DNA from: Candidatus Omnitrophota bacterium
GTDB taxonomy: Bacteria; Omnitrophota; Gorgyraeia; Gygaellales; Profunditerraquicolaceae
DNA: 64,000 nucleotides
Direction of reading: 5' to 3'
Assembly (NCBI GenBank): GCA_041650835.1
Contig: JBAZKL010000003.1
Location: 163,682-227,681, forward strand
In this document: positions 883 to 22,653 of the stretch, in pieces
Layout: each line of letters opens with the position of its first letter
How positions within the stretch are numbered: the first letter of the stretch is position 1
Program-made: the position numbers and the translations under genes
Notes under the pieces: generated by a model
What the model saw: the letters and a program-made list of their open reading frames with translations, nothing else
Database searches by the model: none
Told to the model about the DNA's origin: nothing

Positions 883-1698
883 CTAGAATAAACTTTTTAT
901 TTTACCCGGATTTTCCTCCCAATTCTTATCTAATTGATATCCTCTCCCAAAGGGGTCATCAGGGATCTTCTCGATCAAACCTTTTTGCACTAATTCGTTT
1001 AGATCCTTGGGCCAGAAACCAAAAAGTTCTTTAAATTTCCTTGTTTTGCCTTCTAAAAACACGATATTCTTTAACCAATCTATTTTCTTCTGAAAAAGCT
1101 TTATAAGTTGTTCGTCAGTAATGGTTTGAGCGAGGCTTTCTAAATATACAATGCCCATTTCCGCCTTGCCTGCTTTGTAATAAAACATTGCCTGATTAGT
1201 TTTAAGATACGGCGGCGCCCCGGGCAATAAAGACGATTTCTGATAATATTCGGCAGCCTTAAGATATTCACCAAGCTGCAAATAATTAAACCCTGTCCAG
1301 AACGGCACGCGCCAATCCCCCGGATTCAGGGAAGCCGCTTCTTCAAGAAAAGCAGTCCCCAGGGGAATATCGGTTTTCTTAACCGGCACAATACTCCCTC
1401 CAAAGAAATAAGCGCTCATTAATTTAGGGTCAAGATAAACAGCTGTCCTGAAAACATTGATCAGATACGGCACGCGGTTCGGGATCTCCTCGGTAAGCTC
1501 TAAGACGCCCTTAATAAACATCATTTCCGCGACCATTGGCCTGAATGTCCCGCTCACAGAAGAAAGATATTTGACCGAAGGCAGGTAAAAAAGGGGCTTT
1601 TTTTGTGCTAAAGCAACGGCTGATAAACGCCAGGATAGCGTAATAACGGCAAGGCAAAAGAAAAGAGAAAAAAACGCGGCCTTTTTTCTAACATCCAT
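883..1698 (-). CDS. Hypothetical secreted protein, possibly TPR-like, encoded upstream of the ABC transporter
   Basis: 271-aa ORF with an N-terminal hydrophobic signal (FFSLFFCLAVITLSWRLSAVALA). The sequence appears helical-repeat rich. No catalytic motif was recognised. Confidence 0.5.
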   Translation of the reverse strand: MDVRKKAAFFSLFFCLAVITLSWRLSAVALAQKKPLFYLPSVKYLSSVSGTFRPMVAEMMFIKGVLELTEEIPNRVPYLINVFRTAVYLDPKLMSAYFFGGSIVPVKKTDIPLGTAFLEEAASLNPGDWRVPFWTGFNYLQLGEYLKAAEYYQKSSLLPGAPPYLKTNQAMFYYKAGKAEMGIVYLESLAQTITDEQLIKLFQKKIDWLKNIVFLEGKTRKFKELFGFWPKDLNELVQKGLIEKIPDDPFGRGYQLDKNWEENPGKIKSLF

Positions 1699-1701
1699 AG
1701 G

Positions 1702-2463
1702 TTAATGCTCTTTATTGACGAATACCAGGACGCTTAAGGTAAAAGTAAGTAAAATATAAGCAAGAACATACAAAAAAATATATCCCGCGAAGGATGCGCT
1801 CATATTCTGCCCGTATATCGCCTGATATTTCAGGTCGATCTTATCCGTATTAGGCAGTATATGGTACAAAGACCTCATCGCTATTTTCATCACAACGTTT
1901 TCTGATACCGCGACGATCTTGAGCGCGCTCAGAGAAAACTCACTGGAAACATAGGCAAAAACAGTGGCGATGGTAGCCAGAAGCGGATACTCAAAAATAC
2001 AGGCGAATAAAAGGCATATTCCGCAAAACAAAGAGATCTTTAAGAAGATGCCAAAGCACCCCCAGAAATACTGCCAGAGAAAAGCCTTATTGAACACCAG
2101 GACGATGCCGGACAAAACAGAAGCCATTAAGATATACGTAAAACAGATCACCAGATAACCGAGCAATTTACCTGCCAGGTAGCTGGTTTGCGGAAAATAA
2201 GACAAATAAACTTCTTTTAACCGGGTTTCTTTTTCACGGTAGAAGTTATTCACGATCCCCAGGACAACTAAGAACAAACAGCTGATCTCGATGGCACAAA
2301 GGCTGATATTACGCAGGGCCACTTCTTTCTCACCGATAGACAATTCACCCAGAAAAAGAGAGAACGCCAAAAGGAACAAGAAAAAGAATGCCACCCCCCA
2401 AAAAGTCTTTTCCCTGATCCCCTGTTTGATATTGATCAACAATAATGATTTAACACTATTCAT
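1702..2463 (-). CDS. ABC-2 type transporter permease
   Basis: 253 aa, strongly hydrophobic with about 6 predicted TM segments. It overlaps the downstream-adjacent ATPase gene by 8 nt, which suggests translational coupling. Confidence 0.6.
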   Translation of the reverse strand: MNSVKSLLLINIKQGIREKTFWGVAFFFLFLLAFSLFLGELSIGEKEVALRNISLCAIEISCLFLVVLGIVNNFYREKETRLKEVYLSYFPQTSYLAGKLLGYLVICFTYILMASVLSGIVLVFNKAFLWQYFWGCFGIFLKISLFCGICLLFACIFEYPLLATIATVFAYVSSEFSLSALKIVAVSENVVMKIAMRSLYHILPNTDKIDLKYQAIYGQNMSASFAGYIFLYVLAYILLTFTLSVLVFVNKEH

Positions 2464-3169
2464 GACGGGTGATCCCTTTTATAAAAGCTTCTTCCAAAGA
2501 ACTGCTTTTATGTTTATCTATAAACCCTTTGACCGCGCCGGTAAATTCCAGCTTTCCATAATAAATGACCCCGATCCGGTCGCATAATTTCTCTGCCTGC
2601 GAAAGGTTATGAGAAGAAAAGAAAACAGTTTTACCCTGGCTACGCAGGTCCCTGATCAATGACATGATCTCATGCTGGCCGATAGGATCCAGGCCTAACA
2701 TCGGTTCATCAAGGATGACAAAAGCGGGATCCTTGAGCAATGCCGTTGCCAGCCCTAAACGCTGGACCATACCGCGGGAATAATGTTTTATTTTTTTCTT
2801 GCCGTCGAGCTTGACCTTTTCCAGAAACGCGTCGATCGCGGCAGCGCCGACCCCGATACTGAAACCCAGATTCCTTAGGAATTCTTGCCCGGTAAGCTCC
2901 CGCGGCGGGGTAAAATTCTCAGGCAGGTAACCGAAATCACGGTAGATATCTTCAGCAACAAGCGTTTTAGCTTTATAAAGATATTCGCCGCGGGTTATTT
3001 TCAACAATTGCAGGATACTCTTAATGAGCGTCGTCTTCCCTGCGCCATTCGGGCCCAGAAGCCCGAAGACTTCCCGCTCATTGATCGTAAGTGACACATC
3101 ATTAACAACACAAACCTTACCAAAATATTTGGATATATTTCTTGCTTCGAAAAGAACAGATACGCTCAT
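2456..3169 (-). CDS. ABC transporter ATP-binding protein
   Basis: Walker A GPNGAGKTTL, signature-like SRGMVQRLGLA, Walker B VILDEP, and an H-loop SSHN. Confidence 0.9.
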   Translation of the reverse strand: MSVSVLFEARNISKYFGKVCVVNDVSLTINEREVFGLLGPNGAGKTTLIKSILQLLKITRGEYLYKAKTLVAEDIYRDFGYLPENFTPPRELTGQEFLRNLGFSIGVGAAAIDAFLEKVKLDGKKKIKHYSRGMVQRLGLATALLKDPAFVILDEPMLGLDPIGQHEIMSLIRDLRSQGKTVFFSSHNLSQAEKLCDRIGVIYYGKLEFTGAVKGFIDKHKSSSLEEAFIKGITRHE

Positions 3170-4147: not shown

Positions 4148-5824
4148 TTAGCCCGATTCCAAGGTGACCCTGACCACTTCTTCAGTTGTTGTAACACCCA
4201 GCATCAGCTTATCTAACGCGGCTTTACGCAGGGTAGTTAAGCCTTCTTTTACGGCTACCTCGCGGATCACCTCTGCCGAGCAGCGCTTCAAGACCATTTG
4301 CTGAATACCCGGGGACATCTTTAAAAGCTCATAAATACCTACCCTGCCCTTATACCCGCTTTTATTGCATATCTGGCAGCCGCGTCCCCGGCTGAATTTA
4401 ATATCCTGGCCTATCTTTTCTTCTAACCCCAAGCTTTTAAGCAATTCAGGCGCGGGGGTATAATATTCCTTGCATTTTTCGCAGACCCGCCTGACTAAGC
4501 GCTGGGCCAAAATTCCCAATAATGATGAAGAGACGAGGAACGGCTCAACGCCCATATCAATTAAGCGCGTAAAAGAAGACGGCGAATCATTGGTATGCAG
4601 CGTCGAAAAAACAAGGTGGCCGGTGAGCGCTGCCTGTACCGCGATCTCAGCGGTTTCCCTATCTCTGATCTCTCCCACCATGACAATATCCGGGTCCTGG
4701 CGCAAAAAAGAACGCAGCGCCGAAGCAAAGGTCAGGCCCGCGATAGGATTGACCTGGACCTGGCGCATCCCCGGGAATTGATACTCAACAGGATCCTCAA
4801 CAGTCATAATATTGACATCTTCTTTATTAAGCATTTGCATGCTGGAATAAAGCGTCGTAGTCTTACCGCTGCCGGTAGGGCCGGTAACCAGGACGATCCC
4901 GTAGGGAGAGCTTAGGATCTCTTTAAATAAAGCCATCTCCCGGGAAGGGAACCCCAGCGATTCCAGGCCGAGAACCAGCCCTGTTTTATCCAAGATCCTT
5001 AATACTACATTCTCTCCATGGACCGTAGGGCAGGTGGAAACGCGAAAATCAATATTCTTACTGCCGATCTTCATCATAATACGCCCGTCTTGCGGCAGGC
5101 GCTTTTCCGCGATATCCAGATTTGACATGATCTTAAACCGGGATATGATCGCCCCCGAGAGGTCGCGCGGCAGGGACGGCTGATGACGCAGGATCCCGTC
5201 GATACGATAACGGACACTTAAAAGCTTATCCTCCGGCTCTATATGAATATCGGAAGCTTTCATCTGCACTGCCTGCACAATAAGATGATTGACTATTTTT
5301 ATGATCGGGGCTTCTTCACCGAGCTTTTCTCCGTCGGCAAGTTTATCTTTGTCGATAGAGGCGATGATCTGCTGTAAATTAAAAGCGGAACCCCCATAAT
5401 ATTGGTCCTGGGCTTTTCGAATATCTAATTCTTCGGCCAAAACCGGCTCTACATTAAGCTTGGTTATACGCTGGAGCTCATCGATGATAAAAACATTCTT
5501 CGGGTCCTGCATCGCAACCGTCAACGTATTCTCAACCATAAAAACAGGGATCAATTTATATTTTCTGGCAAATTCCTCAGGGATAAGCTTGATAACATCG
5601 GGTTCAATGATATAGCCGGCAAGGTTGAATTTAGCGATACCGGATTGAGAGGCCAGCGCCCGCTCAATTTCCTCCTGGCTTACCAAGCCATTTTTGAGCA
5701 AAATCTCTCCCAGCCGCTCACTTGAGAATTTCTGCTGCTCAAGGGCTTCTTTCAACTGAGCCTGAGTGATCAAGCCGCGCTCGATCAGTATTTCGCCTAA
5801 TTGTTTATGAAAACTTTCTGCCAT
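4148..5824 (-). CDS. pilB: Type IV pilus / type II secretion assembly ATPase, GspE/PilB family
   Basis: Two N-terminal T2SE_N-like repeats (LGEILIERGLITQAQLKEALEQQ and LGEILLKNGLVSQEEIERALASQ). Walker A GPTGSGKTTTLYS. The C-terminus carries the tetracysteine motif CEKC...CQIC. Confidence 0.9.
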   Translation of the reverse strand: MAESFHKQLGEILIERGLITQAQLKEALEQQKFSSERLGEILLKNGLVSQEEIERALASQSGIAKFNLAGYIIEPDVIKLIPEEFARKYKLIPVFMVENTLTVAMQDPKNVFIIDELQRITKLNVEPVLAEELDIRKAQDQYYGGSAFNLQQIIASIDKDKLADGEKLGEEAPIIKIVNHLIVQAVQMKASDIHIEPEDKLLSVRYRIDGILRHQPSLPRDLSGAIISRFKIMSNLDIAEKRLPQDGRIMMKIGSKNIDFRVSTCPTVHGENVVLRILDKTGLVLGLESLGFPSREMALFKEILSSPYGIVLVTGPTGSGKTTTLYSSMQMLNKEDVNIMTVEDPVEYQFPGMRQVQVNPIAGLTFASALRSFLRQDPDIVMVGEIRDRETAEIAVQAALTGHLVFSTLHTNDSPSSFTRLIDMGVEPFLVSSSLLGILAQRLVRRVCEKCKEYYTPAPELLKSLGLEEKIGQDIKFSRGRGCQICNKSGYKGRVGIYELLKMSPGIQQMVLKRCSAEVIREVAVKEGLTTLRKAALDKLMLGVTTTEEVVRVTLESG

Positions 5825-5841
5825 AGTATTTTAAATAATTA

Positions 5842-8800
5842 TCACCATAGGACTTGACGCAGGCGGGCATCCATTTCTTCCAATTTATTTAACCAGCTTT
5901 TCACCGCTTTTTCTTTCTTAACCTGAGATGCTTCCTGGCTGGACTGCCGCACCTGATTGGAGCTGCGTTTATTCATTTGATACTCCAACTGCTCTTTATC
6001 GAGCTGCGCCTGCTTACGCCTGTCGATTACCGTTTGCTGCTGGTCAACCTTGGTTTTCGCCGCCATCTCCCGCTTATCGAACAGCGGCTGCTGGCTTTGA
6101 CGCCGCTGCTGCCGTAATTCAGCCTGAAGCTGCCGGTCTTCTATTGCGCGCTGGCGCCTTTCTTGTGCCTGCGCGACAAGCTCTTCCTTATGCTGGCGCG
6201 CTTCTTCTCGAGCGAGCTGCGCCTGCTTTTTTCTCTCTTCTTTGGCAGCCTTCAATTGTTGAACACGCTCAAGCTTTGCTTTTTCCTCCGCGAGCTGTTG
6301 TTCATGGATCTGTTTTTCCTCCTGGGCCTTTTGCTCTACGAGTTGGAGCCTGGATTCTTCTATCTTTTTCAAAGTCTCTAATTTTTGCTGCAGAGCCTCC
6401 TGGTGCTGGGCAAGGCGCTGCTTTTTCAATTCCTGCTCCTGTAAAGCTATTTGGCGCTTTTGCTCTTCAAGCTGATGAATACGCTCCTGTTCCTGCTTTT
6501 CAGCCGCTAAACGTTTTTCTTCTTCCTCCTTAGCCAACTGTTCCAGGCGACTTTTTTCTTCTTCTTCAGCGAAAACACGGGCTGCCGCCGCAGCCTGTTT
6601 TTGCTCCAAAAGCTCTTTATGTTTTTCCGCGACCCTAAGCTTTCTTACCTCTGCCAGCCTTGAGCGCTCCACTTCTGCCTGCTTCTCAGCTGCCAGGCGT
6701 TTTTCTTCTTCCTGTTTAGCCTGCTGCTCCTGGCGCTGATATTCCTCTTTAAGCTGCTTCAGGCGCTCTTGCCGTTTGGCCTCTTCAGCCAAACGCATTG
6801 CTTTCTTGACCCCCGCTTGCTCTTCTGCCAGCTGCTTTTGCTTTTCCTGGGCCTCTTTATCCGCTGCCAACTGCTTCTCTTCCGCTTCCTTGGCCAGGCG
6901 TTCCTGGCGCTGCTCTTCTTCTTTAAGCTGCTTCAGGCGCTCTTGCCGTTTGGCCTCTTCAACCAAACGCATTGCTTTCTTGACCCCCGCTTGCTCTTCT
7001 GCCAGCTGCTTTTGCTTTTCCTGGGCCTCTTTATCCGCTGCCAGCTGCTTCTCTTCCGCTTCCTTGGCCAGGCGTTCCTGACGCTGCTCTTCTTCTTTAA
7101 GCAGCCTTAGGCGTTCTTCCCTTTTCGCCTGCCCAACCAAACGCATTGCTTTCTTGACCCCCGCTTGCTCTTCTGCCAGCTGCTTTTGCTTTTCCTGGGC
7201 CTCTTTATCCGCTGCCAACTGCTTCTCTTCCGCTTCCTTGGCCAGGCGTTCCTGACGCTGGGCCTCCTCCTGCGCGGCTACCGACTTTGCTTCGGCTGCA
7301 ATTCTTTTTTGTTCTAAAAGCTGTTTTCTTTTTTCCGCTGCATTAATCTTATTCTTTGTTTTCAACTCTGCCTGCTCAGCGCTAAGCTGCGCAGACTTTT
7401 CCTGAGCTTCTTTCTCCGCCGCCAGCCGCTTCTCTTCTTCTTCCTGAGCGAGCTGCTCCTCCGATTTCTTTTCTGCAACAGGCTTACGCAAAGACGCCTG
7501 TTCATTCTCTTGCGCTAATTTATTCTTAAGCTTTCCCCTTGCCTTCTTTTGTAATTTCTGTTTACGCAACTCTTCTTTTTGTATCCGGGCCTCTTCTAAA
7601 GAAACCTCTTTTCTTATCGCAAGCCAGGTATCGACATCTTCTGCCTGCTGCTCTCCTGCCGCAGAATCCTGCGGTAGGAGTGAGGGCTCAACCGGAGCTG
7701 TTGCCCTTTCCGGTTTAAGCGCTTCCTGAGGCTTTAAAGCTTCAACCGATTTTTCAACTTCCAGAGCTCTTTTTTTTTCCTGATCCGCTCCCGGCGGCGC
7801 AGATTGAGCGGCTTTCTCTTTTTCCTTTAGACGATCCTGTTTTTCTTGTATTAACTGCTGCTTTTTTTCATCCCTGAGGCGCGCCTGTTCCAACGCTAAT
7901 TGATCCCGGCGTTCTTGCTCCTTCTTTTCAGCCTCAAGGCGCTTTTGCGCTTCCTGCTTCATGCGCTCTTGCCTATCTTTCTTTTCTTCAGCTTTCTTTT
8001 TTAAGCGCGCCTCTTTTGCCTGTTGAACTTCAAGCCTGCGCGCCTCTTTCTGTTTTTCTAACGCGCCCTTTTGCGCCTTCAGCAATTGCTTTTGTTCTTC
8101 GATCTTAGCAAGATACTCCTGCTCCTGCTCGGTCAATTGCTGGGTACATTCCTGCTTTAATTTTTCCTTCTCTTGCTGGAGCTTCTTCTGCGCCGCCTCT
8201 TTTTGCTTCTGTTTTTCTATTTTTATTTTTTCGGCTTCCTGCTTTTTTTCTTCTTCGGCACGAGCGAGTTCTGCGGCGCGCTCTTTTTCTTCCGCCTGCC
8301 GCCTTAACTCTTCCTGTTTTCTTTCTTCAGCCAGAAGCTTTCTTTCTTCCCGGATCTTTTCTTTTGCCGCGGCTAATTCCTGCAGGTGTTCCTGCTTTTC
8401 CCGGGCTGCTTCTCGCCGCTCCTCTTCCCGCTGCTTAAGAAGCTCTTCCTTAGCCTTCTTTGCTTCTTCAAGCTTCTTGAGGCGCGCTTGTTTTATTTGT
8501 TCTTCCTGAGATTTCTTTTCTTCTGCTGCTGCCTGCTTCTCAGCTGCCAGGCGCTTTTCTTCCTCCTGCTTAGCTAACGCATCCTGGCGCTTTTGCTCCT
8601 CTGCTGCCTGCTTCTCGGCTGCCAGGCGCTTTTCTTCCTCCTGCTTAGCTAACGCATCCTGGCGCTTTTGCTCCTCTGCGACCTGCTGAAGGCGCGCTTC
8701 TTTTTTTTGCTGAGCGAGCTTCCTTTTTTCTTCTTTACGCTTTTCCAATTCGCTCAAGCGCTGCCTGCGCTCTTCTTCTTTTTGTTTTTTACTCAGCATC

Positions 8801-9507
8801 TTCCGGCGCTCCTGCTCCGCGCGCTCGGCTTCCAATTGCTGCTGCTGGCGCATCCGTTCTAATTCGAGTTTTTGCGTGATCAATTCCTGCTTCTTCGCTT
8901 CTATCTCCGCCAGGCGTGCCTGCGCCAAGCGCTCGCGCTCTAATTTTTCTTCATTTAATTGTTTTTGCTCTTCTTGCTTTACCATCTCATCTTTACGCCT
9001 GCGCTCCTCATCCTGGGCAAAAAAACGGGCTTGCGTGAAGACTCTTTTTTCTTCCTCCAGATAGATCTGCCGCTGGATCTCTTCTTCTTCCTTTATATAC
9101 TGGTCTATCCTGTTGACCAACGCGCTGATCCTGCCGTCTTCGCCTAAATATTCTGCCTGTATGCCTGAAACGGTTTTCGAAGCCGGCGAGGCTTCACCTA
9201 TTTTTCTGTCCACTCCGCAGGCAGGCATAGCTGGGGCGGGAAAAGACTCAAGGTGCCCTATCTGCATGGTTACCGGCGACTGCTCCTGCAGAAAATCATT
9301 AATCTCTTGTTTCCGGCGTAAGATCTCTTCCTTTTTCTTACGCAGAGAACGAATATACTCTTCCTCTGCCTTGACCTTGCGCTGCATTTCTTCAAGGCGC
9401 AGCTCTTTTTCAGCCATATTATTATCTTGAGCGTAAACAACCCCCGCTCCCCAAACCATGCATCCCGTCACATAAAACCCAGCGATTATTAAAAATAGTC
9501 TTTTCAT
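5842..9507 (-). CDS. Giant coiled-coil lipoprotein (1221 aa, E/K/Q/A/R-rich) with internal tandem repeats
   Basis: Signal peptide with lipobox (FYVTGC). The remainder is almost entirely heptad-like charged low-complexity sequence. A 171-bp (57-aa) unit is repeated three times (about 6770-7260), and an ~80-bp unit twice (about 8520-8680). Antisense plus-strand ORFs also look repetitive for the same reason. Confidence 0.8.
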   Translation of the reverse strand: MKRLFLIIAGFYVTGCMVWGAGVVYAQDNNMAEKELRLEEMQRKVKAEEEYIRSLRKKKEEILRRKQEINDFLQEQSPVTMQIGHLESFPAPAMPACGVDRKIGEASPASKTVSGIQAEYLGEDGRISALVNRIDQYIKEEEEIQRQIYLEEEKRVFTQARFFAQDEERRRKDEMVKQEEQKQLNEEKLERERLAQARLAEIEAKKQELITQKLELERMRQQQQLEAERAEQERRKMLSKKQKEEERRQRLSELEKRKEEKRKLAQQKKEARLQQVAEEQKRQDALAKQEEEKRLAAEKQAAEEQKRQDALAKQEEEKRLAAEKQAAAEEKKSQEEQIKQARLKKLEEAKKAKEELLKQREEERREAAREKQEHLQELAAAKEKIREERKLLAEERKQEELRRQAEEKERAAELARAEEEKKQEAEKIKIEKQKQKEAAQKKLQQEKEKLKQECTQQLTEQEQEYLAKIEEQKQLLKAQKGALEKQKEARRLEVQQAKEARLKKKAEEKKDRQERMKQEAQKRLEAEKKEQERRDQLALEQARLRDEKKQQLIQEKQDRLKEKEKAAQSAPPGADQEKKRALEVEKSVEALKPQEALKPERATAPVEPSLLPQDSAAGEQQAEDVDTWLAIRKEVSLEEARIQKEELRKQKLQKKARGKLKNKLAQENEQASLRKPVAEKKSEEQLAQEEEEKRLAAEKEAQEKSAQLSAEQAELKTKNKINAAEKRKQLLEQKRIAAEAKSVAAQEEAQRQERLAKEAEEKQLAADKEAQEKQKQLAEEQAGVKKAMRLVGQAKREERLRLLKEEEQRQERLAKEAEEKQLAADKEAQEKQKQLAEEQAGVKKAMRLVEEAKRQERLKQLKEEEQRQERLAKEAEEKQLAADKEAQEKQKQLAEEQAGVKKAMRLAEEAKRQERLKQLKEEYQRQEQQAKQEEEKRLAAEKQAEVERSRLAEVRKLRVAEKHKELLEQKQAAAAARVFAEEEEKSRLEQLAKEEEEKRLAAEKQEQERIHQLEEQKRQIALQEQELKKQRLAQHQEALQQKLETLKKIEESRLQLVEQKAQEEKQIHEQQLAEEKAKLERVQQLKAAKEERKKQAQLAREEARQHKEELVAQAQERRQRAIEDRQLQAELRQQRRQSQQPLFDKREMAAKTKVDQQQTVIDRRKQAQLDKEQLEYQMNKRSSNQVRQSSQEASQVKKEKAVKSWLNKLEEMDARLRQVLW

Positions 9508-9517
9508 AAGATAACCT

Positions 9518-10801
9518 CTAATTATCCATCGCCTGTATTTTCCCCGCGACCGTCTTTTTAACTTCCTCTAAAACCCTTAAATCCTGCTCTTGCCTGCGCA
9601 GGTCCTGTTCCAATGCCTCTCTTTCTGAAACCAGGGAAGAATGTTTTTTATTCAACACTTCTACTTTCTTGACCGCTTCTTTCTGCTTATCTTTTTCCCG
9701 GGCCTCAGCTAACAACAATGCTTTTTCTTGCTTCTGCTTATCTTGATAATACGCTTTTCCGAGGCCGAACCGCTCCTGCTGCCCCATCTTAGCATATTCG
9801 TTAGGCGTAATGATAGTAGGAGAAACAAAAATCATTAATTCTGTCTTATCCCTGGTATCCTTCTGGCTCTTAAACAAATAGCCCAATACGGGAATATCTC
9901 CCAACAGAGGGATCTTGGTCTGGCCTTTTGTAACTTTATCTTTAATTAAACCTCCGATTATTAATGTTTGCCCGTTCCCTATAATAACCCTGGTTGTCGC
10001 TTGCCGTTTATCGATAATAGGGACATTATACGTTAAGCCGGAAATAGTCAAGGGCAAATCTCCCGTTTTCTCGCTTACCTGAGGGTCAAGATCCATAGCA
10101 ATTTGCCCATCTTCATTAATAGTCGGGGTAACCTTCAAGCTTATTCCTATTTCTTCAAAATGTATCGTCCAGGTGACCGTTTGATTGCCGGCATCGTCGA
10201 TCGTCACCGACGGCTCTGCCCAAGGATAACTCTGGATAATCTTTAATTCCGCCTGCCGGTTATTAATCGTTGTTATCCGGGGGGAAGAAAGGATATTCGT
10301 ATCCATCGCGTTAGCCAGCGTCTGCACGACAATATTAATATTATCGTCGAAAATAGCAAAGGTAAAAGGAGATTCCGATGTCCCGCCGGTGGCTTGGAGC
10401 GGAGGATAAATGGTATTTTTGTATGAAAGGCTCTGCGTGAGCGGGCCCGGCAACGCTCCTAAAGTACTTGCCGTTCCGGCCTTTAAACTTCCGATAGGGA
10501 GATATCCTTTGTCCGCGAATAACTGCCAGTTGACCCCCAAAGCGTGTTCCTTTTGCAATTTTGATTCAACGACCCGGGCTTCGATCAAAACCTGCTGCGG
10601 AGGCGCATCCGCCATCGCCAGATAATCCTCAACACGCTGGACGTTATCAGGATAATCGATCACAACAATAGAATTCGGCTCATTCCCATAGAGCACCTTT
10701 CCGTCTGTAGATAACAACGACCTAAGATTATCACTGATCTGCTGAGCATGGACTATGGAAAAACAAAAAAGAAAAAATAAAACGCACCCTATTCTTTTCA
10801 T
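9518..10801 (-). CDS. Secretin, GspD/PilQ family, short form with a C-terminal coiled-coil tail
   Basis: Signal peptide. Secretin_N-like SIVVIDYPDNVQRVEDYL. Secretin core motifs VLIEARVVE and TLIIGGLIKD...KIPLLGDIPVLGYLFKS...ELMIFVSP. The last ~80 aa are K/E/Q-rich coiled coil. The start is preceded by AAGGAG. Confidence 0.8.
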   Translation of the reverse strand: MKRIGCVLFFLFCFSIVHAQQISDNLRSLLSTDGKVLYGNEPNSIVVIDYPDNVQRVEDYLAMADAPPQQVLIEARVVESKLQKEHALGVNWQLFADKGYLPIGSLKAGTASTLGALPGPLTQSLSYKNTIYPPLQATGGTSESPFTFAIFDDNINIVVQTLANAMDTNILSSPRITTINNRQAELKIIQSYPWAEPSVTIDDAGNQTVTWTIHFEEIGISLKVTPTINEDGQIAMDLDPQVSEKTGDLPLTISGLTYNVPIIDKRQATTRVIIGNGQTLIIGGLIKDKVTKGQTKIPLLGDIPVLGYLFKSQKDTRDKTELMIFVSPTIITPNEYAKMGQQERFGLGKAYYQDKQKQEKALLLAEAREKDKQKEAVKKVEVLNKKHSSLVSEREALEQDLRRQEQDLRVLEEVKKTVAGKIQAMDN

Positions 10802-10819: not shown

Positions 10820-11797
10820 TTAATTGCTTGTACTACTGCTCGTGCTACTGGTTGTAGATGCGCTGGTAGTCGAGGAGCCGGTACCGCTTTCAGTGGTCAC
10901 CACACCCACCACATCCGAAGCCTTTAAATATTTCATCTTAAAGACCTTACTGGTCATACGTTGGTCTATCTGCTGAAGATATGCTTCAATACGCGCGACA
11001 TAAGGAGGATAATCGATCACGATGATCGAATTCGGCACCTGCCCCAAAAGGATCTTTCCTTTCGCGGAAATAAGGTCATAGATCGTGCTTTCTTCCTTTT
11101 TCGCCTCTTCAAGTGCAGCGTCACCGGAGCCTGCGGCGGCCGAAGGCTGCGCCACAGTCGGAGAAGCCGCCTCGGTGCCTTGTGTCGCCTTCGCAGTATC
11201 AAGCAGCTTCCTAGCTTGAATATATTTTAAAACAACCATTTTGGTGATTAAATGCGGGCTGACCTTGACGATAGAGCCTTTTTTCTCCAGCACCAGATTA
11301 CTGATCTCGGCGATCCCTTCAAGAGCTTCTTCTAAGGAAATATTCGTAAAACTGGCGGTGATCTTTCCCTGGATATCTTTATCAACTAAAATATTCAAAT
11401 TATAATCATGCGCGATAACACGGAACAAATCGGACAATTCCACATTCCGCAGCTCGATCGAATACACCGGCAATTCATTTTCCAGGCGCTTGATCTCTAA
11501 AACCGGGACAGGAGCGGTCAATTCTTTCTTTACTTCTTTTTTCTTTTCCGCCTCTTTGCCGTCTTTGCTCTCCTGGTCATCGGCTTCTTCTTTTTCATCT
11601 CCCGGCTCTTCTTCACCATCATCGACACTGGAACTTTTTTGCCCGGCGCTTGACGCCGCAGGACTCATTTGAGCCGGTTTTTCATCAGCTTCATTTTCCA
11701 CCCCTGGCTGCGGCCTGGCAAACAAAGAATTCCCGCAATTGTAAAGCATAAACAAAAAACTGATCAACCCGATGAGCCCTATTTTCTTTAGTGTCAT
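10820..11797 (-). CDS. Secretin N-domain protein, the periplasmic N0/N1-like half of a split secretin
   Basis: Signal peptide with a lipoprotein-like Cys (LYNCG). An acidic linker, then secretin_N motifs (ILLGQVPNSIIVIDYPPYVARIEAYLQQID), and a Ser/Thr-rich C-terminal tail. It ends 18 nt before the secretin gene, which has its own RBS. Confidence 0.65.
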   Translation of the reverse strand: MTLKKIGLIGLISFLFMLYNCGNSLFARPQPGVENEADEKPAQMSPAASSAGQKSSSVDDGEEEPGDEKEEADDQESKDGKEAEKKKEVKKELTAPVPVLEIKRLENELPVYSIELRNVELSDLFRVIAHDYNLNILVDKDIQGKITASFTNISLEEALEGIAEISNLVLEKKGSIVKVSPHLITKMVVLKYIQARKLLDTAKATQGTEAASPTVAQPSAAAGSGDAALEEAKKEESTIYDLISAKGKILLGQVPNSIIVIDYPPYVARIEAYLQQIDQRMTSKVFKMKYLKASDVVGVVTTESGTGSSTTSASTTSSTSSSTSN

Positions 11798-13854
11798 TTT
11801 TTAAGTCCTTGTTCTGAATTCAAATCGTTGCTGCCGATGCTGGATTCGAATTCTGGTTTATCAAGCCCGTGTGCCCATATGATCGTCACCTGATTTTTGA
11901 AAACACCGTATACGGTAAAATCCTTCGTCCCGGGATTAAAAAAAAGATCACACCGCCCCGCCTTAAAAATCCCCTTTTTATTTTCTTCTAAGGCAATACC
12001 CGGGTATCTCTTCTGGAGCCACTGTTTATGCCCTTCGGCAAATTCGAGCGCGTCTTCAATGGTATCCCAGGATGACACAAAACGTATGAGACGGTTCCCC
12101 CGGTTATTTTCATACACCATGAGCCGGTCATCCAGCCAGCCGGAAACTGACTGATCAACGGCCTGCTTATCCAATAAACTGCTGAAAGACAAAAGGAGCG
12201 TGAATTCTCCTAAAGTAGTTTCATAGATCTTTTTCCATGGCTCGGAAGGCTTAACACCCTCATCAAGAACAGAGGGAGTTTTTTCTGCCGTAATTTCCCT
12301 GCCCGCGTATTTATGCGGATGCATGATCTCTTCCATGGAAACCGGAGGCGCCTTATAAATATTGCCGATATCGCTCCAATTGAACTGTCGTAAATACGAC
12401 TGGATAAACCGGGCGCCATAACCGTATATATTATACAGGATATTTCGCTTTGCATACTGCGATTGTTTCAAAAATTTATCTTCCAGCAGGACAAAAACAT
12501 CTTCAAGATGCTGCAGCTTCTTATCATCCTTGTTCAAAATATATTCAAGCATTACCGCGGAAGCATCGCCCTCTATGAGGGACTGCCGGGCAAACGCCAG
12601 GTCAAAATTATCCCGGGTATGAAGGCGGTCGGAGAATTTTTCAATATTGTAGTTTTTGTCCTGGAACGCGTGCGCCAATTCATGGACTACGACGATCTCG
12701 GCAAAATGAGGGGGAAGCCAATCCCCGATCAGGATCGTCTTGGTTTGAGGGTCATATAACCCCGCGATGGAAGAAATCTCCGAATTAAACGTACTTTCAA
12801 GGTAATCCGCGTCCTCGTTGACGACCCCTAACCATTTCATAACAAAACTTTCATTCTCCCGGACTTCGGGAGGCAGATCACGCTCCAATTGTTCACGTAA
12901 AAATTCCCCGAATGACACACGGTCTTTATATTCGACATTGATCGCCTCGGGCTTGCCCCAACCGCGTATCTGCATGACCGACTGCGTCAGACGAGGAAGC
13001 ATCCCTTTAAGCTTTTCTTTTTCTTGAATAACCTTATCTTCGACAAACGCGGGGACCTGTGTTGCACCCGGCACGCCGAAATCGTAATACTTGACGGTCT
13101 GCAGGATATACATATCGCCCAGCTTGCCTTCAGCGCGCAAGAGATGCGGCAAATACGTATCGGCGTCGATCCAGGTCTTAACAAAGATCTCTCCAACCAC
13201 ATTCCAATACGTCAACATCTCCGCGCCCAGCTTATACTGCAGCACAAAACAATCTTTACCGTTCCTTTTCTCCATACCCGCAAGCTTAACGGTTGAAGCA
13301 TCAGCCGCGCCCGCGTTAATTGAAGCAAGGCTGTTTAAGATCCCGTATTCTACCGCTTGTTGCGCGTCTTTAGCGGAAATCTTCAATTGTTCGCATTTCC
13401 ATTCCCGCTTATTCAGGTCCCACGTAAAAGGGATACCCCTGATCTTATACGTTTGCACCCATTGAGAAGTTGAAATGCTCTTTGATAAAATCGATGATAC
13501 GCTTACCCTGCCGGTTGTCCGGTAATCATCAATGTTGGTAATATCGCTCTTAAAATCCGATTTGATATGAAAAAGAGGGGTTTCCAGCCAAGTTTCCATT
13601 TCCATGCGCACAGAACGCTCTTTAAAAAATGCCGAGGTGGTTTTTTCCAAAACTTGATAGGGGGTACGCTGAACAGTTACCTGAGGGAAGCCGCAGGGCG
13701 CTTGATGTTCTTTTTTGTTTTCCACGCAGGTATCCGGTTTCGCAACCATACAGTCGCTTAAATTAACCCGCTGCCAGCCGGTGAGTAACGGCAGCACCAT
13801 AGCTAAGAAAATAACTCGAGAGGTTCCTTGTAATCCTGACCCTGTTTTCATCAA
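11794..13854 (-). CDS. Secreted zinc metalloprotease-like protein with HExxH
   Basis: 686 aa with an N-terminal signal sequence. IVVVHELAHAFQD contains an HExxH zincin motif. The 4-nt overlap (ATGA) with the downstream-adjacent gene suggests operon coupling. Confidence 0.55.
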   Translation of the reverse strand: MMKTGSGLQGTSRVIFLAMVLPLLTGWQRVNLSDCMVAKPDTCVENKKEHQAPCGFPQVTVQRTPYQVLEKTTSAFFKERSVRMEMETWLETPLFHIKSDFKSDITNIDDYRTTGRVSVSSILSKSISTSQWVQTYKIRGIPFTWDLNKREWKCEQLKISAKDAQQAVEYGILNSLASINAGAADASTVKLAGMEKRNGKDCFVLQYKLGAEMLTYWNVVGEIFVKTWIDADTYLPHLLRAEGKLGDMYILQTVKYYDFGVPGATQVPAFVEDKVIQEKEKLKGMLPRLTQSVMQIRGWGKPEAINVEYKDRVSFGEFLREQLERDLPPEVRENESFVMKWLGVVNEDADYLESTFNSEISSIAGLYDPQTKTILIGDWLPPHFAEIVVVHELAHAFQDKNYNIEKFSDRLHTRDNFDLAFARQSLIEGDASAVMLEYILNKDDKKLQHLEDVFVLLEDKFLKQSQYAKRNILYNIYGYGARFIQSYLRQFNWSDIGNIYKAPPVSMEEIMHPHKYAGREITAEKTPSVLDEGVKPSEPWKKIYETTLGEFTLLLSFSSLLDKQAVDQSVSGWLDDRLMVYENNRGNRLIRFVSSWDTIEDALEFAEGHKQWLQKRYPGIALEENKKGIFKAGRCDLFFNPGTKDFTVYGVFKNQVTIIWAHGLDKPEFESSIGSNDLNSEQGLKK

Positions 13855-14682: not shown

Positions 14683-15516
14683 CTATCCCGCAGCAAGCTT
14701 CAACAACTTGTTTTTGCCTTCTTTCGAAAGCTCTATGAATTTTATACCTAAATAATATCGTTTCCCTTCCTGTATATTACAATAAACGATCTCCCCCTTT
14801 GCCTGGACCGTTTCAGCTTCACTTATTATGCCGGAATTCAGTTTAAATTCTATAGATACTTCCAGGCCTTTAGGCAAAAACAAAAACACCTGCAAACCGA
14901 CAGCCATACCCGATTCCGATATATTGCAGGAAACCCCGTCAATAGGCGAGGCGCAACGCAGCCGTACCTCCTGCCCTTCAAGGGAAACGCGCACCGGAAC
15001 GGACAAGCTCCGGCGGCCGGATTCCCGATGGAAAGGGACCCCCCGTAAAGGATTCTTCTTGAACAGTAAATTTTCCAATTTAAAGAAATCCGCTTCTTGC
15101 CCGTAATATGAATCAAGCGCCTGCTGGATAGCGCGGGGTGAAGCGATCAAAGGCTCTACCGCCGATTCGCTTAAAGCAGACAGGCGGTCCAGGAAAGCCG
15201 TATTAAAAGGGTCTGAACAGGCAATATATAACGTATTCTTTACTTTAAATAACGGAATACACTGGTATTCGCGGCAGAATGATTCGCTTAATCCCCGGAA
15301 AACATCCGCGTTGATCGCATATTCCGTTAGTGAAACATAATTAAGGGCGCTTTCCTGGGCAAAAAGAATAAAAACATCTTCCTCGGTGAGATGGCCCCGC
15401 CTGACCAAAACACTCCACATGGATTTACCGAGCCTGAGAGCTTCTTGCTTGGCGGCAGAAAGCTGTTCTGAAGTAACCCGCTTGCTCCGGATAAGTTTTA
15501 ATTCAAACTCTTCCAT
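14683..15516 (-). CDS. T2SE_N (GspE N-terminal-like) domain fused to a PilZ domain; a putative c-di-GMP receptor
   Basis: The N-terminal ~140 aa resemble the GspE/PilB N-terminal domain (LGKSMWSVLVRRGHLTEEDV...CREYQCIPL...NTLYIACSDP). The C-terminus has PilZ motifs RESGRR (RxxxR) and NISESGM (D/NxSxxG). Confidence 0.7.
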   Translation of the reverse strand: MEEFELKLIRSKRVTSEQLSAAKQEALRLGKSMWSVLVRRGHLTEEDVFILFAQESALNYVSLTEYAINADVFRGLSESFCREYQCIPLFKVKNTLYIACSDPFNTAFLDRLSALSESAVEPLIASPRAIQQALDSYYGQEADFFKLENLLFKKNPLRGVPFHRESGRRSLSVPVRVSLEGQEVRLRCASPIDGVSCNISESGMAVGLQVFLFLPKGLEVSIEFKLNSGIISEAETVQAKGEIVYCNIQEGKRYYLGIKFIELSKEGKNKLLKLAAG

Positions 15517-15537
15517 TGTATAATGAGGTGCCCTTGA

Positions 15538-16122
15538 TTACAAAGAAGCGCTTCCCTTGTCCTGCTGCGGATAATATTTTTTAATGAAATCGGCCAGGTT
15601 TTCCGAGACTTTTTGCTCTTCTATAATATACATGCCTCCTTTATTCAATTCTTCGGGAGATACCTGAGGGTACTTCTTCTGCATCGCTTCAAGCCATTCA
15701 GCCTGCTGACGGGCGATCTTGATCAATACCCGGTTGTCGCGGATCACGTCAAAATAATCGAGCGACTGCTTCACGATCATTTTTAATTCTTCGTTTTCCC
15801 AGGGCTTGGTAATAAACCGGTACACCTGCCCCTTATTGATAGCCTGAATAGCGGCTTCCAGGTCGGGATAACCGGTAAAAAGTATCCGGATCGAATCAGG
15901 GTAAAGCTGCTTGACCTTGACCAGGAAATCAACCCCCTGTCCGTCGGGCAGGCGATTATCGGAGATCACCAGGTCAACCCCGCCCAAACTCTTGAGCTTA
16001 TCAATGCCCTCCTGAACACAGCCGGCAGTATTGATATCCCTGTCATCGGCGCGCAGCAACCTGCTTAAGCTGCTTAAGATATTCTGTTCATCATCAACGA
16101 TCAATATAGTATGGTTAGGCAT
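15538..16122 (-). CDS. Response regulator with CheY-like receiver and a C-terminal domain of unknown function
   Basis: ILIVDDEQNIL...VISDNRLPDGQG...ITKPW shows the receiver Asp and KP motifs. The ~70-aa C-terminal extension has no obvious DNA-binding HTH. Confidence 0.8.
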   Translation of the reverse strand: MPNHTILIVDDEQNILSSLSRLLRADDRDINTAGCVQEGIDKLKSLGGVDLVISDNRLPDGQGVDFLVKVKQLYPDSIRILFTGYPDLEAAIQAINKGQVYRFITKPWENEELKMIVKQSLDYFDVIRDNRVLIKIARQQAEWLEAMQKKYPQVSPEELNKGGMYIIEEQKVSENLADFIKKYYPQQDKGSASL

Positions 16123-16474
16123 TCTTTTGCTCCTCTAAGTTTTTAACATAGCGGTCGATATACTCCTTCCCGGAAGAAGGAAAGACCTTGGTGAACATGA
16201 TCCCCATGCCCGCCGCTTCCGCGGTGCCTGCCGGCCGGCTCCACTGCACGACCCCTTCCGCGTGAATGATCTTTTTTTCTTTCCCGCCTTCATCAAACTC
16301 AAACATCACTTCAATCTTGGCGTTAGCCGGCTCAACCTTATCGGTTGAAACGAACATGCCTCCCGCGGAAATATCGCGGGTTTCGACATACTGCCAAAAA
16401 CTTCTTCCCCTGACCTCCACCCGCAACTTAACAAACGCCCTTTTATATTGCCTCTTTTCGTCAAAAGCTCCCAT
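16115..16474 (-). CDS. PilZ domain protein, c-di-GMP binding
   Basis: RQYKR (RxxxR) and DISAGGMFV (DxSxGG) are canonical PilZ motifs. 119 aa. Confidence 0.8.
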   Translation of the reverse strand: MGAFDEKRQYKRAFVKLRVEVRGRSFWQYVETRDISAGGMFVSTDKVEPANAKIEVMFEFDEGGKEKKIIHAEGVVQWSRPAGTAEAAGMGIMFTKVFPSSGKEYIDRYVKNLEEQKNA

Positions 16475-16784
16475 CGCTTCTCCTGCGTTTTTTGTTTACT
16501 ATTAACTTTTTAGCCGTGGCATCCTCAACCCCGGCTTGACCGGCCGTAAAACTAAAAGAATATTACTGCTGCTTCCGGCTAAGCGCGATATCGTACAAAC
16601 TAAGCGCTATACTACAAAACAGGCAGATCACCGCGTTAATTATCAAAGCCCCGGGAAGCGCTCCCCATTTGATCTCTTCAATCCCTAATAATTTAAACAT
16701 GCCGCCGATTACCATTGCAAACAAACGCTATTGCCAGGAACAGATCATCTCCTAAATTATAAACCTTATTTATCCCACCCCTCC

Positions 16785-21312: not shown

Positions 21313-22653
21313 CTATTCTCCGTTATTTTGAGGCATCAGTTCAACTCCGACCTTCTTCCCGGCAGCCCCCGGCGTATCAACAGTATCATACGTCCGCTCC
21401 GGCTCAGCGAGTTTGAACATATTGCTGACCTGCTGGAACTTGTTCTGCAATTCATTTAATTTCGCCTTGGTCTGGTTCAGGTCATTGACCATGGTTTCCC
21501 GTTCTAATTGCACCGAAACATTCTGCTCCCGCAGCAACGCGGATTCTTTTTTCATCTCTTTATATTTTGAATAGACCTCAAATGTCTTGGCGTCCGCTTC
21601 CTCCAGCCGCTGCTTTATAAAAGCCACTTCTTCTTTTCGGCGGGACAACTCGGCCTCACCCTGCTTCATCGCTAACTGGGAGGTAGCGTGCTTATCGCCT
21701 AAATCGGAATAATCCTTATTCAATTTCGCAAGCTGCGACTTAAACAAATTGACCTCTTTTGCCAGCTCTTGGTTCTTCTTGCTCAAAAGAACCATGTTCA
21801 TCTTTTGCTTCTCGGTGCGTTGGGTATAATCCTGTTTTTCCTCTATAAGCCTTGCCTCCCTCGATTGAGCGTCCTTTAATTCCCTGTCCAGCTTTTCCAG
21901 AACCGGCTTCAGGTCAGGGCCGCCGAGGGAAAGCTCATTCAATGTTTTTTCCAGGTCAAGGGCCTTCTGCGCCAACAACGCTTTTTCATTCACTACTACC
22001 TGCAGCTGCCCGGAGACAGAAGACAAGGTATTCTGTAACGCTTCTTTCTGGGACTGCGCTTCCGCGAATTGCTTCTTAAGCGCCTGTAACTCTTCTTCCT
22101 TGCGCGCCAGGCTTTCACGGAACCGTTCCGTTTGCTCTTTATACGCCGCTATCTCGCTCAATAACGCCGGGACCTGAGCATTAACCACATCCAGGTCTTT
22201 GCCTAAGTTCTCTAATTGAGCGATAAACTCCGCCCCCTTATCCGGCTGGAGCTTAAGCTCCGTCAAAACGCGCTCGAGCTGACGGATCTTTTCTTTAACC
22301 GGCAGGGATATATCGGCATCGCCTTTAAGCCCGGCCAATTCTTTTTCCAGTTCATCTTTTTGCTTCATGGCGTCTTTCAACTGCCCCTGAAGATCAATGA
22401 TCTTTGCTCTCACATCGAGGGCCTTGGCTTTTTCCTCGTTGAACGCCTGATGCAGGGTAAGATTAAATTTACCGAAGCCATTGACTACGTCGCGCAACTG
22501 CTGCACCTCGGATTCCAGCACTGAAACGGCCATCCCGTTCTTATCCGCGAGAGTCACCTGGCGGGTTTTCTTAGAAAGCTTGACCGCCTGGAAGAGCACA
22601 AAAGAAAGCAGCATGACCACGACAAAAAGGATCAACAATTTTCTATCCGTCAT
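21313..22653 (-). CDS. Membrane-anchored coiled-coil protein in the pilus operon
   Basis: N-terminal TM segment (LLILFVVVMLLSFVLF) followed by ~400 aa of heptad-rich K/E/L/Q sequence. It sits between pilQ and pilB, the position occupied by the giant coiled-coil protein in locus B. Confidence 0.65.
   Translation of the reverse strand: MTDRKLLILFVVVMLLSFVLFQAVKLSKKTRQVTLADKNGMAVSVLESEVQQLRDVVNGFGKFNLTLHQAFNEEKAKALDVRAKIIDLQGQLKDAMKQKDELEKELAGLKGDADISLPVKEKIRQLERVLTELKLQPDKGAEFIAQLENLGKDLDVVNAQVPALLSEIAAYKEQTERFRESLARKEEELQALKKQFAEAQSQKEALQNTLSSVSGQLQVVVNEKALLAQKALDLEKTLNELSLGGPDLKPVLEKLDRELKDAQSREARLIEEKQDYTQRTEKQKMNMVLLSKKNQELAKEVNLFKSQLAKLNKDYSDLGDKHATSQLAMKQGEAELSRRKEEVAFIKQRLEEADAKTFEVYSKYKEMKKESALLREQNVSVQLERETMVNDLNQTKAKLNELQNKFQQVSNMFKLAEPERTYDTVDTPGAAGKKVGVELMPQNNGE

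Follow-up and report, generated by a model that had tools for sequence, protein, structure and literature searches.

Charged single alpha-helices (CSAH or ER/K domains) are known, for example, from myosin VI/X and caldesmon, and another long helix, the Ala/Lys/Glu-rich domain II of TolA, spans the periplasm as part of the Tol-Pal system. The proteins PulS and OutS bind the S-domain of their secretin, and YscP/FliK as well as the phage tape-measure proteins have conserved ends and a helical middle that sets a length. Type IVa pili are widespread in Omnitrophota and may serve attachment to hosts (PMC10066038). Here we analyzed a 64,000-nt stretch of DNA from a Candidatus Omnitrophota bacterium (GenBank assembly GCA_041650835.1, contig JBAZKL010000003.1, positions 163,682 to 227,681 of the forward strand; hereafter the window), in which a type IV filament operon encodes, between a split secretin and an MshE-type ATPase, a protein of 1221 amino acids (aa) on the minus strand (5842..9507). 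Judged from its sequence and gene position, this protein is the longest member of a previously undescribed, unannotated and Omnitrophota-only family. In the literature on Omnitrophota pili and secretins, and on single alpha-helices in connection with the periplasm, we found nothing on the 1221-aa protein or on the split secretin.

Of the described systems, CSAH spacers and TolA domain II come closest to the protein, which appears to put such a helix in the position of a secretin accessory. With CSAH/ER/K domains it shares the lack of a hydrophobic seam, opposite charges at i+3/i+4, a near-zero net charge, long predicted helices and a plausible use as a semi-rigid spacer between two binding modules, but it is only about 47–54% charged, with much Q, A and L, than which classical ER/K helices are more highly charged; it is also 10–20 times as long as typical eukaryotic single alpha-helix segments, bacterial and extracytoplasmic, and its helix is a prediction. 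TolA domain II resembles it in having an N-terminal hydrophobic segment, a long charged helix in the envelope and a small C-terminal interaction module. Unlike TolA, the 1221-aa protein has an N-terminus that looks cleavable and not like a TolQR-coupled anchor, and a C-terminal module that is a 27-residue helix and not TolA domain III; searches of Pfam and NCBIfam gave no TolA, TolQ or TolR homology, and no such gene context was seen, the neighbours being pilus genes. The pilotins and S-domain partners (PulS/OutS, AspS, MxiM; PilF/PilW/Tgl) and other accessories (TsaP, FimV, and GspA/B in the MshM slot) are likewise encoded next to a secretin, exported, and small and helical at their minimum size, with a C-terminal extension of the secretin as candidate binding site, but the family described here lacks a conserved lipobox and carries a huge charged insertion. 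No match of the 1221-aa protein to a pilotin family was found in Pfam, NCBIfam or PDB sequences, and no LysM, TPR or AAA+ domain in Pfam or NCBIfam. With the rulers YscP/FliK and phage tape-measure proteins it has in common conserved termini, a variable helical middle and a repeat copy number that differs between relatives; it differs by showing no homology to them and by belonging to a family that some loci do without and others encode in several copies. By the sequence-based tests run, the protein is thus not a coiled coil, a pilotin, TolA, or an accessory of the MshM/GspA or LysM type.

The gene and its family

The open reading frame (ORF) that the preliminary description of this DNA had placed at 5842–9507 is present as an unbroken frame of 1221 codons on the minus strand (the coordinates count in the stop codon), with a ribosome-binding site (GAGG) 8 nt 5' of the ATG. 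It starts 10 bp after the stop of the secretin gene (9518–10801) and ends 17 bp before the T2SSE/MshEN ATPase gene (4148–5824), all three lying on the same strand. The encoded protein consists mainly of E (20.1%), K (14.7%), Q (14.0%), A (13.2%), L (9.9%) and R (9.3%). Orthologues that can be aligned over the full length were found in L005 (1069 aa) and L006 (1065 aa), and ratios of nonsynonymous to synonymous substitution rates (dN/dS) between the window gene and these two were calculated by the Nei-Gojobori method. For the whole gene, dN/dS was 0.17 (L005, dS 0.57) and 0.12 (L006, dS 1.41). The charged arms of the protein gave 0.10–0.19, similar to the neighbouring genes (0.09–0.21 for the two secretin halves, 0.17 for the gene with a DUF8575 domain), and the interval around a central hinge (aa 566–630) reached 0.38–0.48, which indicates relaxed constraint.

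Database searches with the protein itself were uninformative: at full length it had no match in Pfam, NCBIfam or PDB sequences, a word-indexed search of 5.8 billion proteins returned no homologue because candidates were swamped by low-complexity words, its first 178 aa had no match in the same index, and no identical record of the exact protein was found. These empty searches, the low-complexity make-up and the presence of long shadow ORFs on the opposite strand could be taken to mean that the ORF is mis-called, or that it is a low-complexity expansion without function. Such an explanation is at odds with the ribosome-binding site and the tight operon spacing and, above all, with dN/dS values of 0.12–0.17 at dS up to 1.4 and with orthologues of 1065–1069 aa that align over the whole length. 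Since the latter two are incompatible with a shadow ORF and with a neutral expansion of low-complexity sequence, the ORF is a real gene under purifying selection, and the mis-call, to which we attach next to no probability, is effectively refuted by dN/dS.

An exhaustive phmmer search of 1.84 billion representative sequences with the N-terminus of the 1221-aa protein yielded one genuine homologue, P0002 (200 aa, E = 3.9e-4), which shares the signal peptide and the next helix and is encoded in an Omnitrophota metagenome-assembled genome (MAG), flanked by a split secretin and an MshE-type ATPase. A nominally better match, P0001 (an actinobacterial NB-ARC/TPR-repeat protein, E = 3e-9), was rejected, since only an 'LGEDGR...' stretch was aligned: aa 117–140 of the 1221-aa protein (about 9088–9159), AEYLGEDGRISALVNRIDQYI, match the repeat unit WLGEDGRVKDAITQFEQLL, a resemblance that is probably a chance helix-turn similarity.

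Further members were collected by scanning genome and metagenome collections with the C-terminal half of the secretin as anchor, which gave about 40 loci, nearly all labelled Omnitrophota and a few assigned to Planctomycetes or unclassified MAGs. The interval between the secretin C-half and the ATPase gene was taken as the slot of the family. It is empty in L010, L012/L038, L016, L017 and L039–L043, and a search of ±10 kb around loci without the gene turned up no further copies. Where occupied, it holds proteins of 105–110 aa (L008, L009/L014/L031), 176–303 aa (L004, L019, L011, L020, L027, L028, L030, L033, L034, L045), 518 aa (L036) and 1065–1221 aa (L005, L006 and the window), or tandem paralogues, as in L015 (227+384+458 aa) and L013 (908+299 aa); the unfused paralogues are located at L015 4240–7465 and L013 11216–14838. 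The 518-aa member (L036, 2042–3598) contains an internal signal-peptide end followed by a copy of the conserved N-terminal motif described below, which points to a fusion of tandem paralogues. Total lengths in the family thus run from 105 to 1221 aa (12-fold), with a middle part that is all but missing in some members and up to about 1100 aa long in others.

A profile built from 15 short members and searched against the 5.8 billion proteins retrieved only 25 proteins, two of them named 'hypothetical protein [Candidatus Omnitrophota bacterium]' and the rest without a name; none of the 25 carried a Pfam domain. Four of these were picked independently of the secretin, and all four (4/4) are encoded directly after a secretin gene; in three of the four an MshE ATPase gene then follows, and the contig of the fourth (P0008) ends at the family gene. 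Homologues unlinked to secretins were absent from the contexts examined, these four included. The link to the secretin put forward in the preliminary description therefore extends to the relatives, which directly follow the secretin in every context and precede the MshE-type ATPase wherever the contig continues. The 1221-aa protein has the features that define the family, namely a signal peptide and the N-terminal motif, the C-terminal motif ending in [VIL]W that characterizes the longer members, and the position between split secretin and MshE.

Conserved end helices and charged arms

The protein begins with a signal peptide (aa 1–26; 9430..9507, minus), recognized from the sequence and the family alignments by an MKR start and a hydrophobic stretch. 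This N-terminus, MKRLFLIIAGFYVTGC16MVWGAGVVYA26/QD, fits both a lipobox (V-T-G-C16; consensus [LVI][ASTVI][GAS]C) and a type-I cleavage site (V-Y-A26/Q). The protein had been called a lipoprotein because of the string FYVTGC, which is indeed there, but the lipobox is canonical only in the clade of the window and a few other members. In the family as a whole, a Cys often stands at the lipobox position, mostly preceded by V, I, L, F, H or Y; L028 and L045 have Tyr in its stead, and L029 and L037 have no such Cys. An AxA-like type-I site (ending ...YA, ...FA or ...RA) occurs at the same place in most members. Given a variable lipobox and a more widely conserved type-I site, lipidation is, as far as sequences can tell, not a family trait.

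A conserved amphipathic heptad helix follows (N-motif, aa 30–75; 9283..9420, minus), which most members have kept along with the signal peptide and which is supported by the family alignment, a hidden Markov model (HMM) and AlphaFold2 (AF2). Its 45 residues have their conserved positions at heptad a/d (...L.E....[VI]..EE..[VI]..L+.+...IL++KQ...), and its HMM matched the family members at E 1e-14 to 1e-17, values that are partly circular. The predicted local distance difference test (pLDDT) of the AF2 helix was about 72 for the window protein, whereas values of up to 89 were reached by a 269-aa homologue. At the other end, the C-motif (aa 1195–1221, KAVKSWLNKLEEMDARLRQVLW; 5845..5925, minus), recognized in alignments and by an HMM, is a conserved amphipathic helix ending in Trp; most members of at least about 180 aa have such a helix with the ending [VIL]W, as in KAVKSWLNKLEEMDARLRQVLW, GFLGKAKKLDSWWREKVW and EWMDKVEQVDSWIKTNLW. 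An AF2 model of the 269-aa member, based on an alignment of 19 sequences, consists of isolated helices and disordered linkers (predicted template modelling score, pTM, 0.20), with pLDDT about 89 in the N-motif and 70–75 in the C-motif; a packing of the two motifs into a bundle, which we considered, was therefore unsupported.

Between the two motifs, a Pro/Gly/Ser-rich non-helical linker (aa 76–122; 9142..9282, minus; AF2 pLDDT 29–41, no secondary structure) leads to a first charged helical arm (aa 123–567; 7807..9141, minus), modelled by AF2 as a single continuous helix of 445 residues. A proline-rich hinge (aa 568–622; 7642..7806, minus), evident from composition, AF2 and relaxed constraint, separates it from a second charged helical arm (aa 623–1194; 5926..7641, minus), modelled as five to six helices. 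The E/K/Q/A/R-rich stretch is therefore not uninterrupted, as had been stated, but broken by Pro/Gly linkers at aa 76–122 and about 568–622. At aa 626–640 the sequence DVDTWLAIRKEVS weakly resembles the C-motif, and this likeness in mid-protein hints that the 1221-aa protein itself may be an old fusion of two units.

The same stretch had also been described as heptad-like and the protein as a coiled coil, a reading that does not survive the analysis of periodicity. In the best register, L, I, V, M, F, Y or W occupied 0.338 of the a/d positions of the 1221-aa protein, compared with 0.34 ± 0.01 after shuffling; a membrane-anchored 446-aa protein encoded in the second pilus locus of the window (locus A), which served as a positive control, reached 0.666 vs. 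0.473 ± 0.017. Normalised hydrophobic power at a period of 3.5 residues was 2.2 for aa 170–565 and 0.3 for aa 630–1140, vs. 22.4 in the control, and counting Ala as hydrophobic left this result unchanged. In place of the absent heptad signal, the arms show charges arranged as in a single alpha-helix. Scored against composition-preserving shuffles, opposite charges were enriched at i+3 (z = 6.5) and i+4 (z = 4.0) in arm 1 and at i+4 (z = 5.0) in arm 2, and like charges at i+6 and i+7 in arm 1. The charge spectrum of arm 1 peaked near a period of 6.5 with a power of 7.4, borderline against the 95% shuffle level of 7.0, and the peak of arm 2 (5.0) remained under its level of 6.0. Charged residues make up 0.47–0.54 of the arms (0.54 in arm 1), with a net charge of +20 over 1195 residues, and the arrangement by which CSAHs are recognized, opposite charges at i/i+4 and i/i+3 along the helix, is found in arm 1 and, at i+4, in arm 2. 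CSAHs are further characterized by a very high E/K/R content and a charge periodicity of about 1/9 to 1/6 per residue.

For the mature protein, modelled by AF2 as a monomer from its sequence alone, the prediction was about 88% helix without a compact fold, with a mean pLDDT of 57.8 (50–73 in the helical parts) and a pTM of 0.25; the possibility raised beforehand that the protein is mostly disordered thus finds no support in it. Because a hydrophobic seam is missing and the opposite charges follow an intrahelical pattern, the arms are most likely extended, semi-rigid charged single alpha-helices and not a heptad coiled coil. As a straight helix at 0.15 nm per residue, arm 1 would measure about 67 nm. 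A typical periplasm is about 25–30 nm wide, so that the long versions of the protein cannot simply span both membranes at right angles.

Tandem repeats and the pilus loci of the window

Two tandem arrays, both scoring far above chance, were detected by Tandem Repeats Finder within the arms. One had been reported as a 171-bp unit repeated exactly three times; the array is real, but the unit is 174 bp (58 aa) long and present in 3.1 copies with 95% matches (6728..7260, minus, arm 2; score 947). The other, noted as a unit present twice at about 8520–8680, is likewise real and consists of 2.2 copies of 75 bp (25 aa) with 96% matches (8526..8687, minus, arm 1; score 303). The window has three full 58-aa units, L006 two and L005 one, and the 25-aa repeat has one copy in L006 and two in L005, the copy numbers of L005 and L006 being taken from short-read MAGs. 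Within a genome the 58-aa units are identical at 51–56 of 58 positions, vs. 38–46 of 58 between genomes, which indicates lineage-specific amplification or concerted evolution.

A shorter, 1105-aa version, with exactly two 58-aa units fewer, is encoded on an ENA contig (L001/L002, k141_2542458). Over 20 kb this contig differs from the window at 16 nt, all of them inside the 58-aa repeat, and is 100% identical elsewhere. The one unit it retains begins as copy 1 and finishes as copy 3, and is separated from copies 1, 2 and 3 of the window by 14, 5 and 1 nt, respectively. As the differences are confined to the repeat and to a copy 1/copy 3 junction, the 1105-aa form was rejected as a real polymorphism and most likely represents a collapse of the repeat during short-read assembly. 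Two further contigs break at the repeats: a Logan contig (L003, SRR8542065), which matches the window at 100% identity, stops within the 25-aa repeat, and a JGI contig of the L005 species (L026, Ga0105098_10001222) within the 58-aa repeat. The suggestion that length changes by gain or loss of repeats consequently holds between species (three, two and one units; 105–1221 aa; paralogues and fusions) but is unsupported within the population.

The operon containing the gene (locus B) is an MSHA/T2SS-like (mannose-sensitive haemagglutinin/type II secretion system) type IV filament operon with the order MshK-like protein, putative metallopeptidase (DUF8575), secretin N-half, secretin C-half, 1221-aa protein, MshE-type ATPase and GspG-like major pilin; minor pilins, a platform protein, PilM-N and PilO are found further along it (in L001). 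By domain matches, the N-half of the secretin (10820..11797, minus) has its own signal peptide, N0/STN and Secretin_N domains and a Ser/Thr-rich end, and the C-half (9518..10801, minus) its own signal peptide, an N-domain, the secretin domain and a tail; the assembly ATPase immediately downstream of the 1221-aa gene (4148..5824, minus) is of the MshEN + T2SSE type. The split at a domain boundary is kept in the Omnitrophota-type relatives retrieved (L004–L020, L026–L052), and such conservation speaks for a functional split and not a frameshift; in distant relatives (L021–L025) the secretin is encoded in a single ORF. The tail of the C-half, a heptad helix of 96 aa in the window (9521–9808, minus), is conserved in relatives at 76–100 aa with the motif ...KKQ..L...R+.LE..[IV]..EE..L..L. 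It shows a weak likeness to the N-motif of the family (hhalign probability 46%, E = 2e-4), and the family HMM matches the secretin tail of L015 at E = 0.001. Secretins without a tail (L016, L017, L039–L043) all belong to loci without the family gene.

Several other genes of the window accompany the pilus loci. The 686-aa protein of the pilus operon (11794–13854, minus), with weak likeness to DUF6782/DUF8575 (putative metallopeptidase) and to Hvo_1808-family surface proteins, is encoded between the MshK-like and secretin genes only in the window, L005, L006, L007 and L012. An ABC-transporter ATPase and two unannotated ORFs (883–3169, minus) are inserted between the major pseudopilin and minor pilin genes of locus B, an insertion that the ENA contig shares. 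A signalling module in the stretch separating the pilus loci (14683–17633, minus) comprises a histidine kinase, a response regulator and an MshEN-PilZ fusion protein, and L002 has an additional small PilZ protein; together with the MshEN domains on both ATPases, the fusion protein suggests that the pili may be under control of cyclic di-GMP. Farther away (44640–47543, minus), a 967-aa protein combining Peptidase_M1 (aa 306–525) with a C-terminal Omp85 beta-barrel (aa 673–961) looks like an unusual fusion.

The gene order of locus A is MSHA-like, with PilM-N, PilO/MshJ-like, MshK-like, secretin, the 446-aa protein, an MshN-like TPR protein, MshE and platform protein. The 446-aa protein (21313..22653, minus) is, as had been described, a membrane-anchored coiled coil, with a transmembrane anchor in its hydrophobic N-terminus and true heptads (the 3.5-residue power of 22.4 given above). 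It resembles the 1221-aa protein in being helical and anchored at its N-terminus, and in having its gene directly behind that of a secretin and upstream of that of an MshE-type ATPase; it differs in having 14% Leu, moderate charge, no N- or C-motif and an MshN-like TPR gene next to it. The proposed conservation of the order secretin, coiled coil, ATPase is thus only partly right for locus A, where a coiled coil does follow the secretin but the TPR gene intervenes before the ATPase. Homology of the two secretin-adjacent proteins of the window, which had been treated as equivalent, was rejected (BLASTP E = 0.16). The 446-aa protein occupies the MshM slot and belongs to a separate family with members of 292–446 aa in five other loci (L010, L012, L013, L014, L037); a P-loop or AAA+ domain, the criterion for MshM/GspA, was found in neither protein (Pfam, NCBIfam).

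Proposed role and alternatives

Both the family and the split secretin are new findings and clearly delimited; function is what we infer from them. We see about an even chance that the 1221-aa protein is an exported helical accessory subunit of the MSHA/T2SS-like machine, docked by its end helices and equipped with an expandable charged single-helix spacer. According to this proposal, the protein would be exported by the Sec pathway as an Omnitrophota-specific accessory, nearly all alpha-helical and free of globular domains. The conserved end helices (the N-motif at aa 30–75 and the 27-residue C-motif) would be docking modules, for which the best candidate partner may be the 76–100-residue heptad tail of the secretin C-half encoded just upstream. 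The charged middle, with arms of about 445 and about 570 residues and a proline-rich hinge, would be a spacer or tether that projects from the secretin complex and expands by tandem duplication of 25- and 58-residue units as well as by duplication and fusion of whole genes. What suggests a docked accessory with a spacer is the combination of conserved end helices, a middle that is variable and yet constrained, and adjacency to a tailed secretin. The cellular side, periplasmic or surface, and the job of the spacer are matters on which we can only infer. In a more specific form of the proposal, which is rather unlikely to be correct in full, the family would be a length-programmable single-helix strut on the secretin ring that sets, for the pilus machine of ultra-small epibiotic bacteria, a stand-off distance or filament length: 12–15 copies of a charged helix of 15–170 nm would project from the pore, pointing into the periplasm, or outward as a crown if the secretin tail is extracellular, and the tandem 25- and 58-residue units would act as an evolutionary length dial.

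A number of observations weigh against the proposal of a docked single-helix spacer. The AF2 models are of low confidence (mean pLDDT about 58) and monomeric, about 10% of 28-residue windows are heptad-compatible (0.625 occupancy), among them the N-motif and aa 1000–1075, and with 10% Leu parts of the 1221-aa protein may pair or form bundles. Classical ER/K helices exceed the charged fraction of 0.47–0.54 seen here. The Trp-ending C-motif is not found in the 105–110-aa and 176-aa members, and the 200-aa member has it only as a degenerate internal copy. Lineages L010 and L012/L038 have kept the secretin tail in the absence of the family gene, and the joint absence of tail and gene elsewhere probably reflects one or two clades with few independent losses. 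Finally, a 12-fold range of lengths comes without an obvious mechanical rationale.

Four other explanations were weighed against this evidence. One, along the lines of the preliminary description, is a lipid-anchored coiled-coil rod of two or three strands, tied to the secretin and serving as a ruler or tether that would span the envelope with fixed geometry. The canonical V-T-G-C16 of the window protein and its closest orthologues, the common Cys at this position in the family, the strict secretin linkage and some locally heptad-compatible segments fit such a rod, but heptad periodicity is absent over about 1050 charged residues, the residue before the Cys is non-canonical in most members and the Cys itself Tyr or absent in some. 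Moreover, a near-constant envelope is hard to reconcile with lengths of 105–1221 aa and with otherwise intact loci that lack the gene, and a 445-residue helix of about 67 nm exceeds the periplasm, which makes a fixed ruler a poor fit and this explanation improbable. A pilotin-like helical (lipo)protein, binding the secretin tail in order to pilot or stabilise the secretin and bearing the charged middle as a lineage-specific add-on, would account for the adjacent secretin gene, for the conserved C-terminal helical tail of the secretin, for the lack of the gene beside tail-less secretins, for minimal members that are helical proteins of about 80 residues when mature and for the lipobox of some members. 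We regard it as possible but unlikely, because the family has no similarity to pilotin families in Pfam or NCBIfam, the lipobox, the defining pilotin feature, is not conserved, and the charged arms are under purifying selection and hence are not a neutral add-on.

Equally unlikely, in our estimate, is that the protein is a cargo which, once exported by Sec, is pushed through the secretin by the pseudopilus like a T2SS substrate, or a surface decoration whose length evolves fast in the face of prey or hosts. In its tandem paralogues, gene fusions and repeat turnover the family behaves as surface proteins typically do, the operon has a GspG-like major pilin (T2SSG), and the C-termini of type IV pilus secretins are reportedly extracellular, according to the title of one paper (PMC4453517), which would put the tail outside the cell; furthermore, Omnitrophota were proposed to be epibionts or predators using type IV pili (PMC10066038). 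Yet the family has no globular, adhesin or enzyme domain and its conservation is limited to two short end helices, dN/dS is low and not diversifying, and the gene always lies within the machine operon between two core genes. The conserved N- and C-termini and the variable helical middle with its tandem repeats would also suit a molecular ruler or tape measure, in which the number of residues in the helical middle sets the length of the (pseudo)pilus. This last explanation appears very unlikely given that no homology to T3S4 or tape-measure families was found in Pfam, NCBIfam or PDB sequences, that some machines do without the gene and that several loci have two or three paralogues of unequal length; to our knowledge, no ruler has been described for any type IV filament system.

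For practical work, two warnings follow from this locus: short-read assemblies collapse or break at such repeats, and charged low-complexity helices are easily taken for coiled coils. If the charged middle is truly a single alpha-helix, it would be an unusually long bacterial and extracytoplasmic example, and the family would offer a natural series with the same ends and different spacer lengths for testing whether proteins set the dimensions of a filament machine. Should the family act as a strut on the secretin ring, it would bring to type IV filament systems a kind of component, the ruler or spacer, of which no example had been described there. Type IV pili are credited with a central part in the attachment or predatory way of life proposed for Omnitrophota, and the machines found here differ from the textbook twice over, with a secretin split into two exported proteins and the gene of an unannotated protein wedged in before the ATPase.

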